This document shows positions 1 to 10,000 of a stretch of 27,110 nt of DNA, piece by piece (the stretch's first letter is position 1; each line of letters begins with the position of its first letter). Source of the DNA: a virus (Duplodnaviria > Heunggongvirae > Uroviricota > Caudoviricetes); the IMG/VR virus record IMGVR_UViG_2534681878_000029, one strand, 5' to 3'. The notes beneath the pieces are model-generated. The model did not search any database. It was not told where the DNA came from and saw only the letters and a program-made list of their open reading frames with translations. Position numbers and translations under genes: made by a program.

Positions 1-975
1 TTACACATCATTAGTACCTTCCTTATTTTTTGACTGGGACAAATTTGGGACCGATGGGTTCAGGATCGAGTCTATTTGCCGTGCGTGTTCGGTAAGGTGA
101 TTAGGTGCAAGGTGAGCATATCGACGAACCATTTCGATAGACTCCCAGCCTCCCATTTCCTGTAACACTGACAACGGGACTCCGGCTTGAACCAGCCAAC
201 TTGCCCAGGTGTGTCTCAAGTCGTGAAATCTGAAATCATCAATACCAGCCCGTCTCAGCGCCGCTTTCCAGGCTGTGTTTGCGTCATACCGCATCTTCCT
301 TACTGTTGGCGCTTTCGTTCCGTCTGGTTTGGTACAGCTTTCCTTGTACACAAATACCCAACGGTGATGATTACCGATTTGTTTTTTCAATACGCGACAT
401 GCAGTATCATTCAGCGCAACGCCAATTGCGCGGTTTGATTTACTCTCTTCCGGGTTTATCCATGCCACCCGGCGCTGCATATCTATTTGTTGCCATTCAA
501 GGTTGATGATGTTCGAGCGTCTTAAGCCTGTTGCCAGTGCAAATTCAACAACAGACTTTAATGGCTCCGGACATTCATCAATCAGCCTTTGTGCTTCATG
601 GGGCTCCAGCCAGCGGAGCCGTTTATTCTTTGGTTGAGGCACTTTAATAATTGGTGCCTTATCGAGCATTTTCCATTCACGCTCTGCGGCTCTTAGCAGG
701 GCCTTTATAAATGAAAGATGCGTAGCCTTCGTTGCAACGGACGCTGGTTTTGGCGTGTATTCTGGAACAGGTTTCCCTTTTTTTCTGCATGCTTCTGCCC
801 TGAGTTTCCAGTTTTCCTCATGACGCCGGTTCGTCATTTTCTGCATTGCTGAATAAATTTTTGATTCAGTAATGTCTCTTAGTTGCATTCCTGCGAAATG
901 TTGAAGCCAGAATCCGATCTGCTTTCCATTGAGCCTGTTTCTCTGCGCGACGTTCGCGGCGGCGTGTTTGTGCAT
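1..975 (-). CDS. int: Tyrosine recombinase (lambdoid prophage integrase); complete ORF with stop at 1-3
   Basis: 324 aa ORF with C-terminal catalytic signature HDLRHTWAS...VRRYAHL (His-x-x-Arg and Tyr nucleophile) typical of phage integrases. Lies at the edge of the lambdoid module. The N-terminal arm-binding region may be missing or frameshifted (overlapping ORF 866-1111). Confidence 0.85.
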
Positions 976-1446
976 CCATCTGGATTCTCCTGTTAGTTAG
1001 CTTTGGTTGTGTGTGGGAGTCGTAGTCCTGAACGAAAACACCCCGCAATGGCACATTGGCTGCTAATCCGGATTCGCACTTCCGGCCAATGCTTCGTTTC
1101 GTATCACACACACCAAAGCCTTCTGCTTTGAATGCTGCCCTTCTTCAGGGCTTAATTTTTAAGAGCATCACCTTCATGGTGGTTAGTGCGTCCTGCTGAT
1201 GTGCTTAGTATCACCGCTAGTGGTATTTGTGTCAACACCGCCAGAGATAATTTATCACCGCAGATGGTTATCTGTATGTTTTTTATATAGATTTATTTTT
1301 TGCAGGGTTGTGTGGCTTGGGAGGTGATCGAGAGATCAGAATTGCGTTGTTTAGTGAGTTGCACCTATTAATTTTAAAATAAATACAATTGGTGAACCGC
1401 CCCGGGTTTCCTGGAGACTAAACTCCCTGAGAAAGAGGTAAACAGG

Positions 1447-1773
1447 ATGACTAAAAATACTCGTTTTTCCCCCGAAGTCCGTCAGCGGGCGATTCGTATG
1501 GTTCTGGAAAGTCAGGATGAATATGACTCACAGTGGGCGGCAATTTGTTCCATTGCCCCAAAGATTGGCTGTACGCCGGAGACTCTGCGTGTCTGGGTTC
1601 GCCAGCATGAGCGGGATACCGGGGGCGGTGATGGTGGGCTCACCAGCGCTGAACGTCAGCGTCTGAAAGAGCTGGAACGTGAAAATCGTGAACTGCGCCG
1701 CAGTAACGATATCCTTCGCCAGGCTTCCGCTTATTTTGCGAAGGCGGAGTTCGACCGCCTCTGGAAAAAATGA
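1447..1773 (+). CDS. IS3-family transposase OrfA (HTH/leucine-zipper part)
   Basis: 108 aa, [22 protein letters not shown]...; recognised from memory as IS629/IS1203-type OrfA. A second near-identical copy lies at 6565-6891 on the minus strand. Confidence 0.9.
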
Positions 1774-2660
1774 TGCCACTGCTGGATAAGCTGCGTGAGC
1801 AGTACGGGGTCGGACCGGTATGCAGCGAACTGCATATTGCCCCGTCAACGTATTACCATTGTCAGCAACAGCGACATCATCCGGATAAACGCAGTGCCCG
1901 TGCGCAGCACGACGACTGGCTGAAGAGAGAGATACAGCGCGTATACGATGAAAATCATCAGGTGTACGGTGTGCGTAAAGTCTGGCGTCAGTTGTTACGG
2001 GAAGGAATCAGGGTGGCCAGATGTACAGTGGCACGTCTCATGGCGGTTATGGGACTTGCCGGTGTTCTCCGGGGTAAAAAGGTCCGTACGACCATCAGCC
2101 GGAAAGCCGTTGCCGCAGGCGACCGCGTAAACCGTCAGTTCGTGGCAGAACGACCTGACCAGCTGTGGGTGGCTGATTTTACTTACGTCAGCACATGGCA
2201 GGGCTTCGTCTATGTGGCGTTTATCATTGATGTGTTTGCCGGATACATCGTGGGGTGGCGGGTCTCATCGTCTATGGAAACGACATTCGTGCTGGATGCG
2301 CTGGAGCAGGCGTTGTGGGCCCGTCGTCCGTCTGGCACCATCCATCACAGCGATAAAGGCTCTCAGTATGTGTCACTGGCCTATACGGAGCGACTAAAAG
2401 AAGCCGGATTACTGGCATCAACAGGGAGTACAGGCGACTCGTATGACAACGCGATGGCTGAGAGCATCAATGGTCTTTACAAAGCGGAGGTAATACACCG
2501 TAAGAGCTGGAAAAACCGTGCAGAAGTGGAACTGGCCACACTAACGTGGGTGGACTGGTATAACAATCGACGATTGCTGGGAAGGCTGGGCCATACTCCT
2601 CCGGCAGAAGCAGAAAAAGCTTATTATGCTTCCATCGGAAACGATGATCTGGCAGCCTGA
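1770..2660 (+). CDS. IS3-family transposase OrfB (DDE integrase-like catalytic domain)
   Basis: 296 aa, overlaps OrfA by 4 nt in the -1 frame; C-terminal portion matches the IS3/IS2 DDE transposase pattern; second copy at 5678-6568 on the minus strand. Confidence 0.9.
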
Positions 2661-2701
2661 GTTCACAGATAAAACACTCTCCAGGAAACCCGGGGCGGTT
2701 C

Positions 2702-3054
2702 AAGGCTGTTTTTCGAGTTTTTCTTAACTCTTCATGCAGCTCCGTTCTCAGAATATATGATTTTTCGAGTTTGAAATTCTTGCGACCAGGCGTCTTATTG
2801 CCAGGCTCAGGAAGTGGAAGGCGTGTTTGAATGTCGAGTGGTGGACAGTCATAGAAGTAAATTCTATAAAGCTCAAGCGGTTCCCTACGTTCTTGTGATT
2901 GACGTTTTCCATTAAGATGGGAAAGAACCATTGACCATATTACTTTCATTATGCATTGCGCAGTCAGTTCATGCTCGGCGAAGTGTTTACGATGCGTAGC
3001 ATGAACACGCTGCATGAAAAAACCCGCATCAATTAAAATTGCTGCTTTCTTCAT
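2702..3054 (-). pseudogene. cI-downstream gene of unknown function, 5' ~117 codons retained, 3' end replaced by IS629
   Basis: ORF starts 128 bp downstream of the cI stop (the position rexA occupies in lambda) with MKKAAILIDAGFF...; from residue ~118 the reading frame runs into the antisense of IS629, so the native 3' end is lost. Confidence 0.5.
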
Positions 3055-3181
3055 AAGAGTCCCAAAAAAATAGCCCAGAGCCGTTATGCAGATATTAACA
3101 ATTGTCTGCGAACGGGGCTGGGCTTGGTTTAATTAATCTATGCCAAGTTGACTGTGCCGTCAACATAAAACTTACTTCCTA

Positions 3182-3898
<717 letters not shown>

Positions 3899-5635: not shown

Positions 5636-5677
5636 TGAACCGCCCCGGGTTTCCTGGAGAGTGTTTTATCTGTGAAC

Positions 5678-6568
5678 TCAGGCTGCCAGATCATCGTTTC
5701 CGATGGAAGCATAATAAGCTTTTTCTGCTTCTGCCGGAGGGATATGACCCAGCCTTCCCAGCAATCGTCGATTGTTATACCAGTCCACCCACGTGAGTGT
5801 GGCCAGTTCCACTTCTGCACGGTTTTTCCAGCTCTTACGGTGTATTACCTCCGCTTTGTAAAGACCATTGATGCTCTCCGCCATCGCGTTGTCATACGAG
5901 TCACCTGTACTCCCTGTTGATGCCAGCAGTTTTGCTTCTTTTAGTCGCTCCGTATAGGCCAGTGATACATACTGAGAACCTTTATCACTGTGATGGACTG
6001 TGCCGGACGGCCGACGGGCCCACAACGCCTGCTCCAGTGCATCCAGCACGAATGTCGTTTCCATAGACGATGAGACTCGCCACCCCACGATGTATCCGGC
6101 AAACACATCAATGATAAACGCCACATAGACGAAGCCCTGCCATGTGCTGACGTAAGTAAAATCAGCCACCCACAGCTGGTCAGGTCGTTCTGCCACGAAC
6201 TGACGGTTTACGCGGTCGCCTGCGGCAACGGCTTTCCGGCTGATGGTCGTACGGACCTTTTTACCCCGGAGAACACCGGCAAGTCCCATAACCGCCATGA
6301 GACGTGCCACTGTACATCTGGCCACCCTGATTCCTTCCCGTAACAACTGACGCCAGACTTTACGCACACCGTACACCTGATGATTTTCATCGTATACGCG
6401 CTGTATCTCTCTCTTCAGCCAGTCGTCGTGCTGCGCACGGGCACTGCGTTTATCCGGATGATGTCGCTGTTGCTGACAATGGTAATACGTTGACGGGGCA
6501 ATATGCAGTTCGCTGCATACCGGTCCGACCCCGTACTGCTCACGCAGCTTATCCAGCAGTGGCATCAT
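5678..6568 (-). CDS. IS3-family transposase OrfB (copy 2)
   Basis: 296 aa, ~99% identical to the 1770-2660 product (e.g. I192V, G212K, T278I differences). Confidence 0.9.
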
Positions 6569-6891
6569 TTTTTCCAGAGGCGGTCGAACTCCGCCTTCGC
6601 AAAATAAGCGGAAGCCTGGCGAAGGATATCGTTACTGCGGCGCAGTTCACGATTTTCACGTTCCAGCTCTTTCAGACGCTGACGTTCAGCGCTGGTGAGC
6701 CCACCATCACCGCCCCCGGTATCCCGCTCATGCTGGCGAACCCAGACACGCAGAGTCTCCGGCGTACAGCCAATCTTTGGGGCAATGGAACAAATTGCCG
6801 CCCACTGTGAGTCATATTCATCCTGACTTTCCAGAACCATACGAATCGCCCGCTGACGGACTTCGGGGGAAAAACGAGTATTTTTAGTCAT
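6565..6891 (-). CDS. IS3-family transposase OrfA (copy 2)
   Basis: C-terminal 108 aa of the 316-aa track ORF are identical to OrfA of copy 1; the ATG is at 6889-6891 (reverse strand). The upstream 208 aa of the track ORF are antisense read-through and not called. Confidence 0.9.
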
Positions 6892-6944
6892 CCTGTTTAC
6901 CTCTTTCTCAGGGAGTTTAGTCTCCAGGATTTCCGGGCGGTTCA

Positions 6945-9445: not shown

Positions 9446-10000
9446 ATGCTTATTGGCTATGTACGTGTGTCAACAAATGACCAGAACACAGATCTACAAC
9501 GTAATGCGCTGAACTGTGCAGGATGCGAGCTGATTTTTGAAGACAAGATAAGCGGTACAAAGTCCGAAAGGCCGGGACTGAAAAAACTGCTCAGGACATT
9601 ATCGGCAGGTGACACTCTGGTTGTCTGGAAACTGGATCGGCTGGGGCGCAGTATGCGGCATCTGGTCATTCTGGTTGAGGAGTTGCGCGAACGTGGCGTT
9701 AATTTTCGCAGCCTGACGGATGCTATTGATACCAGTACCCCAATGGGGCGCTTTTTCTTTCATGTGATGGGGGCCCTGGCTGAAATGGAACGAGAACTGA
9801 TTGTTGAACGAACAAAAGCTGGACTGGAAGCTGCTCGCGCACAGGGACGAATTGGTGGACGTCGTCCCAAACTTACACCAGAACAATGGGCGCAGGCCGG
9901 ACGATTAATTGCAGCAGGAATTCCTCGCCAGAAGGTAGCGATCATCTATGATGTTGGTGTATCGACACTGTATAAGAAGTTTCCGGCCGGAGATAAATGA
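9446..10000 (+). CDS. pin: Serine DNA invertase of the Pin/Gin/Hin family
   Basis: 184 aa from the ATG at 9446 (SD AGGGAG at 9434-9439): MLIGYVRVSTNDQNTDLQRNAL...VVWKLDRLGRSM...GRIGGRRPKL...; resolvase N-domain with catalytic Ser and C-terminal HTH. Confidence 0.9.
   Translation: MLIGYVRVSTNDQNTDLQRNALNCAGCELIFEDKISGTKSERPGLKKLLRTLSAGDTLVVWKLDRLGRSMRHLVILVEELRERGVNFRSLTDAIDTSTPMGRFFFHVMGALAEMERELIVERTKAGLEAARAQGRIGGRRPKLTPEQWAQAGRLIAAGIPRQKVAIIYDVGVSTLYKKFPAGDK

Follow-up and report, generated by a model that had tools for sequence, protein, structure and literature searches.

The window, 27,110 nucleotides of Caudoviricetes DNA (IMG/VR record IMGVR_UViG_2534681878_000029), matches in the region considered here a cryptic prophage integrated at thrW in Escherichia coli O157:H7 (TW14359). 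Downstream of a lambda-type cI gene, on the same minus strand and at a spacing of 127 nt, lies an open reading frame (ORF) that starts with the ATG at 3052-3054, begins MKKAAILIDAGFFMQRVHATHRKHF and runs for 117 codons and 1 nt down to position 2703, where an IS629 element adjoins it (Table 1). This ORF had been noticed in the original prediction, at the position held by rexA in lambda, and given a span of 2702-3054; its start stands and its end is off by one, 2702 being the last base of the insertion sequence. The reading frame continues into the IS, producing a 195-aa fusion ORF (2467-3054).

Over all its 117 aa, the fragment shows 100% identity to the corresponding part of intact 285-aa proteins in phage Lambda_ev099 (gp48), in 2B8, E212 and EC.P3, and in 48 Stx2a-converting phages, and the only family that it matches by itself is PHROG 5783 (E = 2.5e-42, profile positions 1-108 of 246). 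Neither Pfam nor PADLOC returned a hit for the fragment alone, in the case of Pfam because the residues matched by the NYN model in the full-length protein (158-205) are deleted in the window. What survives is the front 41% of the gene, about half of the fold, and judging from that fold the stump should be incapable of acting as a nuclease. With codons 118-285 and the terminator removed, the nuclease would therefore be dead, and only the promoter and leader RNA are intact in the window (3064-3163). The same stump is shared by about 200 complete O157:H7 genomes. As an ordinary pseudogene of a decayed prophage it is of minor importance in itself; it leads, however, to a large family of solitary NYN genes borne by prophages and plasmids.

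Table 1. Coordinates of the features at the locus, as positions in the window.
Feature	Position	Strand	Basis
Lambda-type cI repressor gene	3182..3895	(-)	233/237 residues identical to lambda cI (98%)
Inverted repeat GTTGACGGCACAGTCAAC, one arm of which is the -35 hexamer	3147-3164	(-)	
Sigma-70-like promoter, TTGACG-17 nt-TAGATT	3135..3163	(-)	Promoter scan on the identical sequence in locus L001
53-nt three-tier hairpin (7+5+5 bp, two internal loops, 12-13-nt apical loop)	3072..3124	(-)	Covariance model
U7 tract directly after the hairpin, intrinsic-terminator-like	3064..3070	(-)	Direct reading of the sequence
SD-like GGGA, followed by ATG	3060-3063	(-)	
5' fragment of the gene for a 285-aa NYN-domain protein (predicted nuclease)	2703..3054	(-)	100% aa match to Lambda_ev099 gp48, PHROG 5783
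IS629/IS1203 copy 1, 1310 bp, truncating the NYN gene	1393..2702	(+)	Terminal inverted repeats at both ends
Surviving lambda-like PL/OL/nutL and 5' part of N, outside the cassette	919..1392	(-)	92% DNA identity to lambda 35300-35771

The rexA-rexB slot and the IS629 junction

Past the cI stop codon, homology between the window and lambda DNA extends for 4 nt and then ends. It returns, in the intact phage Lambda_ev099, 8 nt after the NYN stop codon, exactly at the stop codon of rexB, and just past this point lies a terminator-like hairpin that we take to be the lambda terminator downstream of rexB. Since homology is lost at the cI stop and regained at the rexB stop, a 988-bp cassette, at 35173-36160 of NC_049953 in Lambda_ev099, has replaced the 1.4-kb rexA-rexB pair boundary to boundary, and the gene assigned on position to the rexA slot occupies rexA-rexB exactly. 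The earlier view that it is not rexA was borne out when lambda RexA (279 aa) was compared with the full-length homologue, BLASTP yielding chance matches only (best E = 9.2, over 15 residues). That the ORF might be an ordinary truncated rexA, a reading whose one point in favor is its position directly downstream of a cI that is 98% lambda-like, can be dismissed with near certainty on this chance-level match, on the end of lambda homology so close to the cI stop and on the NYN fold of the intact gene.

RexA-RexB is the classic prophage exclusion system of the cI-downstream slot, and the cI-N region is a mosaic hotspot holding rexAB and bstA (PMC8585504). The cassette takes up the same slot to the base, bounded by the cI stop codon and the terminator that precedes PL, and shares the strand of cI. 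Unlike RexA-RexB, to which it bears no sequence similarity, it encodes one protein instead of two, with an NYN nuclease fold in place of a DNA-binding (RexA) and a membrane (RexB) protein, and it brings a promoter of its own, with a hairpin/U-tract leader interposed between cI and the NYN gene. No second ORF or rexB-like partner was found downstream of the NYN gene in the intact phages, where the terminator and PL/N directly follow.

The interruption of the gene by IS629 had also been called correctly. Copy 1, for which the RefSeq annotation of the matching O157:H7 genome gives an IS3-like element, family IS1203, has differing 3-bp flanks (TGG vs AGG) and hence no target-site duplication, so that it cannot represent a simple insertion; beside it, the window is about 573 bp short of Lambda_ev099, a loss that takes in codons 118-285 and the terminator along with a few tens of further bases. 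The IS had been supposed to replace everything leftward up to int, but PL, OL, nutL and the 5' part of N persist beyond it, and the ORF at 866-1111 (-) carries the N terminus of N (39 of 46 residues identical to lambda N). The N-to-int deletion has a junction of its own near position 919, with no IS there. Lambda N is truncated after about 46 codons and fused to the int region, and cIII, kil, gam, bet, exo and xis are gone.

The O157-like strain ERL05-1306 (NZ_CP032803; L114:4501-6734) carries the same thrW prophage with a full-length NYN region, in which the loss of 1 nt near codon 153 shifts the reading frame of the gene. An IS629/IS1203 element lies there 63 bp downstream of the NYN gene, with a TAA target duplication and in the orientation opposite to that of the window copy. 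From this comparison it follows that the truncation in the window is a secondary IS-associated rearrangement. Two simpler schemes, IS insertion followed by an adjacent deletion and recombination between two direct IS copies, were rejected, as the orientation and the TAA duplication in ERL05-1306 conflict with the arrangement in the window. The ERL05-1306 frameshift represents a second inactivation route, and could also be a homopolymer sequencing error. Further along the window (5636-6944), the lambda-type replication gene O is split by a second IS629 copy, inverted with respect to the first; the absence of this copy from ERL05-1306 and its flanks, which overlap by 3 nt, suggest a simple insertion with a 3-bp duplication.

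The intact NYN protein and its genomic contexts

A search for intact versions of the gene in related prophages had been suggested, and such versions were found. The 285-aa product is 100% identical in Lambda_ev099, 2B8, E212 and EC.P3 and 99.6-100% identical in the 48 Stx2a-converting phages, and 74 of the 5,426 complete E. coli genomes carry near-complete copies of the gene. On a full-length homologue, the Pfam NYN model (PF01936) matches residues 158-205 (E = 6.8e-9, 36.8 bits against a gathering cut-off of 24.2). A profile search with the family alignment gave no hit among PDB sequences, and fold searches were therefore needed. An AF2 model built on 34 homologues (pLDDT 86.8) retrieved through Foldseek 2qip and the NYN domain of MARF1 (5yaa), revealing a PIN-like alpha/beta fold that can be superposed on solved NYN domains. 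Invariant across the 34 homologues (41-86% identity) are D9 and D69, which the window stump keeps, and D164, D170, D189, D191 and D224, which it lacks, together with many Arg and Lys residues; these aspartates form a conserved acidic cluster, such as would be expected of the metal-binding residues of an NYN domain. Past the core, the protein presents a P-x-WW motif and then a basic disordered tail.

The protein is closest to the MARF1/LabA-like metal-dependent ribonucleases, and it is predicted to be a nuclease with RNA as its substrate. It shares with them the PIN-like/NYN fold at a sequence identity of 15-18%, and differs from them in being about 100 residues longer, with insertions at 25-60 and 121-160 besides the P-x-WW motif and the tail, and in being encoded by a solitary gene on mobile elements. 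Against PADLOC-DB v2, the full-length protein gave two weak local matches, to HEC-09 (E = 2e-4, 46 residues) and to the NYN model PDLC01154 (E = 1.4e-3, about 45 residues of the catalytic core). HEC-09, the sole NYN defense candidate in PADLOC, is a MARF1-like putative RNase of Hma systems that conferred no protection against the phages tested (10.1101/2024.01.29.577857); its resemblance to the cassette protein is confined to the core motif, and it has another N-terminal domain and another context.

The family is broadly distributed. IMG/VR contains 558 confirmed relatives. At E <= 1e-3, matches were obtained to about 7,000 protein clusters, a figure that probably takes in other NYN proteins; the family members are always single genes. 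A same-strand cI/LexA-like ORF ends 127-550 nt upstream in 40 of 79 IMG/VR loci, and clustering of these upstream repressors gives 23 groups at 90% identity and 8 at 60%, which, together with published work (PMC8585504), upholds the earlier suggestion that the cI-downstream slot is a variable one. The order repressor-NYN is seen in the P22-like Proteus phage Brookers, and repressor, NYN and integrase follow one another in Streptococcus phage Javan84. Elsewhere the gene lies in the slot that separates the Q antiterminator from the lysis genes (in Edwardsiella and in groups L061 and L080), between tail genes I and J (L059), next to the integrase (phiE202, L089) or after the terminase gene (Moraxella phage Mcat4). 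Plasmid copies in Pseudomonas and Acinetobacter sit beside HigBA, YoeB/Phd and HTH-M78 genes, and chromosomal singletons occur in Proteus, between glmS and an ABC transporter, and in Pantoea. The cassette hence travels as a solitary unit into several prophage accessory slots and plasmids, and its distribution is that expected of an accessory gene that benefits its carrier (a "moron"). Small toxin-antitoxin (TA) modules were often observed within a few kb of NYN members in prophages and plasmids, with BrnT/BrnA found twice and HigB/HigA and YoeB/Phd also present (L005:11161-11677, L026:2277-2781, L015:6958-7543, L019:9519-10074).

In the 48 Stx2a phages, the cassette comes after a different, 235-aa repressor and an additional, uncharacterized 113-aa ORF, and the last 19 nt of lambda cI still accompany it. 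Stx2a phage LC616031 (L014:5512-6858, 9484-9715) carries besides a second, partial copy consisting of the leader and the 5' end of the gene, which adjoins an IS629, and the same two-place pattern is present in an O121:H19 genome. With these 48 intact copies among its members, the family occupies the best-known exclusion-gene slot of the lambdoid phages, and it is known in databases only as "NYN domain-containing protein" or as PHROG 5783 of unknown function.

Promoter and leader RNA

The spacer between cI and the NYN gene carries a compact promoter-leader element (Table 1), which, like the NYN fold, did not figure in the original prediction. In the window, 10 nt separate the end of the -10 hexamer from the hairpin foot. 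A promoter of the form TTGACN-16/18 nt-TAnnnT was found in 24 of 32 distinct upstream regions, its -10 ending 8-11 nt before the hairpin, and this fixed spacing places the predicted transcription start at the hairpin foot. Every gammaproteobacterial copy examined has the hairpin before the ATG, whatever its genomic context, with a U-run (5-8 nt) after the hairpin and the SD and start codon 10-35 nt further on; none of the 28 distinct leaders listed lacks the U-tract. No tandem repeats were detected in the window between 2700 and 3300, and the 127-nt spacer holds one hairpin.

Several lines of evidence indicate that the hairpin is maintained as RNA. Across 15 distinct sequences, compensatory double changes affect 13 of the 17 base pairs; 97.3% of cells are paired, against 27-45% when the partners are slid, and none of 500 shuffles reached the observed covariation. 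The non-Watson-Crick pairs comprise 11 G.U and no A.C, and since G.U pairs occur on the sense strand only, this imbalance points to selection acting on the sense-strand RNA. The covariance model scores 82.2 bits on the window (3065-3124, minus strand) and, across 508 kb, yields exactly one hit of 60-83 bits per locus, invariably placed immediately 5' of the gene; the runner-up anywhere scores 26 bits. The association holds on a wider scale: a degenerate 35-nt pattern of the hairpin core, searched in one genome each from 185,579 species, produced seven hits, all seven of them 26-36 nt upstream of an NYN homologue on the same strand. An Rfam 15 scan of the spacer returned no family, only chance matches (E of 8). 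More distant homologues, on the Proteus chromosome, in Streptococcus phage Javan84 and in gut phage L106, have other multi-tier hairpins with U-tracts at the same place. Neither the leader RNA nor its strict link with the gene appears to have been described before.

A further element of the upstream region is a TTGAC-N6-GTCAA repeat (N9 in Edwardsiella-type clades) that overlaps the -35 hexamer. This inverted repeat, a possible operator, occurs in about one to two thirds of the distinct upstream regions; the notion of a universal operator was rejected on this ground, and for the same reason the palindrome is not relied upon in the interpretation that follows.

Possible roles of the cassette

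In its intact form, the 988-bp cassette consists of a near-consensus sigma-70 promoter, the 53-nt hairpin with its U-tract, an SD and the 285-aa NYN gene, and lambda's own terminator beyond rexB ends the unit. Starting from this anatomy, from the fold, from the co-inheritance of RNA and gene and from the mobile-element contexts, all of which are shown here, we propose that the cassette is a self-contained promoter-leader-NYN unit with a ribonuclease-based, exclusion- or toxin-like role, restrained by its leader, and we assign to this explanation as a whole a probability of roughly 0.6. The cassette lies on the same strand as cI, so that read-through from PRM is possible in lysogens. The cassette promoter, along with any such read-through, would yield mostly a short, terminated leader RNA, and occasional read-through past the leader terminator would supply the nuclease at a low level. 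The nuclease would then act as a toxin-like, metal-dependent RNase to the benefit of the mobile element, through superinfection exclusion, abortive infection or addiction, and the co-inherited leader would restrain it by attenuation or by direct binding. As modeled here, the cassette would constitute an accessory nuclease module of prophages and plasmids equipped with an RNA control element.

A defense role for the NYN gene is plausible. No experimental report on the family was found in the literature on prophages, defense, toxin-antitoxin systems or abortive infection; Rousset 2022 and the 2026 NAR hotspot paper make no mention of NYN, and a search by the accessions of the Stx2a phage records returned nothing. 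Since the cassette is small (about 1 kb), self-contained and provided with its own promoter, its phenotype should be easy to test, and if it proved to be a defense or addiction module, it would add to the known repertoire an NYN effector under a dedicated structured RNA.

Among the alternatives, a type III-like RNA-protein TA or abortive-infection (Abi) module is possible, if unlikely. Here the abundant terminated hairpin would neutralize the NYN RNase, and its decay after phage-induced shut-off of transcription would free the toxin. In the type III systems known, the antitoxin is an array of repeats that is processed into pseudoknots. Type III systems (ToxIN, CptIN, TenpIN) reside on plasmids and prophages, act in abortive infection and plasmid stabilization, and have as their defining layout a promoter, a structured RNA, a Rho-independent terminator and an endoribonuclease gene (PMC5086642). 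The order of parts in the cassette fits this layout, given a nuclease activity that is predicted for its protein; RNA and protein are always co-inherited; the cassette is found on plasmids and prophages beside other TA modules; and both O157 variants have a broken protein under an intact leader, which is the order of decay that a TA pair tolerates. The RNA of the cassette is, however, a single non-repeated hairpin and not a tandem-repeat array, its protein has an NYN/PIN-like fold as opposed to the MazF/Kid-like fold of ToxN, CptN and TenpN, and a plain attenuator explains the same architecture. Lacking repeats and a ToxN fold, the cassette may therefore work like a type III system without being a member of that class. 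A related proposal, offered tentatively and itself unlikely, is that it represents a new RNA-protein TA/Abi class in which the non-repeated 53-nt hairpin, made in excess because it carries its own terminator, directly antagonizes the NYN RNase, protecting lysogens and plasmid hosts from phages and, in lambda-type phages, standing in for RexAB. If this were true, O157:H7 would still be making an orphan antitoxin-like RNA, its toxin being dead.

It is improbable that the protein is a regulatory RNase serving the carrier or the host, for instance by processing specific transcripts, with the hairpin as an autoregulatory attenuator. LabA-like and MARF1 NYN proteins, which the cassette protein matches in fold, are regulatory RNases in other organisms. 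The absence of a defense phenotype in HEC-09 points the same way, and the chromosomal singletons in housekeeping neighborhoods without mobile-element context (Proteus, glmS) fit this reading as well as they fit defense. A role in the phage lifecycle is nonetheless hard to reconcile with the occurrence of the gene on plasmids, in five prophage slots and behind many types of repressor, and the gene has been repeatedly lost or broken while the prophage was retained.

More improbable still is that the upstream element acts as DNA, either as a self-immunity site or as a recombination site that mobilizes the cassette. The precedent is BstA of BTP1, a defense gene found downstream of the repressor, cI included, in diverse Gram-negative prophages, whose 63-bp self-immunity element at the 5' end, aba, acts as DNA (PMC8585504). 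Like bstA, the NYN gene is a single gene directly after a prophage repressor with a conserved cis element at its 5' end; the TTGAC-N6/N9-GTCAA palindrome lies over the -35 in many copies, and the cassette boundaries are sharp. Unlike BstA-aba, the protein is unrelated and the element bears the marks of an RNA hairpin and terminator. The G.U bias among the hairpin pairs and a U-tract always 3' on the sense strand make a DNA-level role less likely, and the promoter is placed to start transcription at the hairpin foot.

The family is in part hidden from gene-based surveys by the way in which RefSeq annotates it. PGAP splits the NYN gene into a 354-nt pseudogene "missing C-terminus" and a 117-aa "NYN domain-containing protein" (WP_137413698) at three of the loci analyzed, in E. 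coli 214-4 (L013:3001-3858), GPEC1165 (L003:4495-5352) and ERL05-1306 (L114:4501-5357). The DNA of 214-4 is 100% identical to the intact 858-nt ORF of Lambda_ev099 gp48, and the split there is therefore an artefact of annotation, for which the truncated O157 protein was probably the seed. At the ERL05-1306 locus, the gene is really frameshifted.
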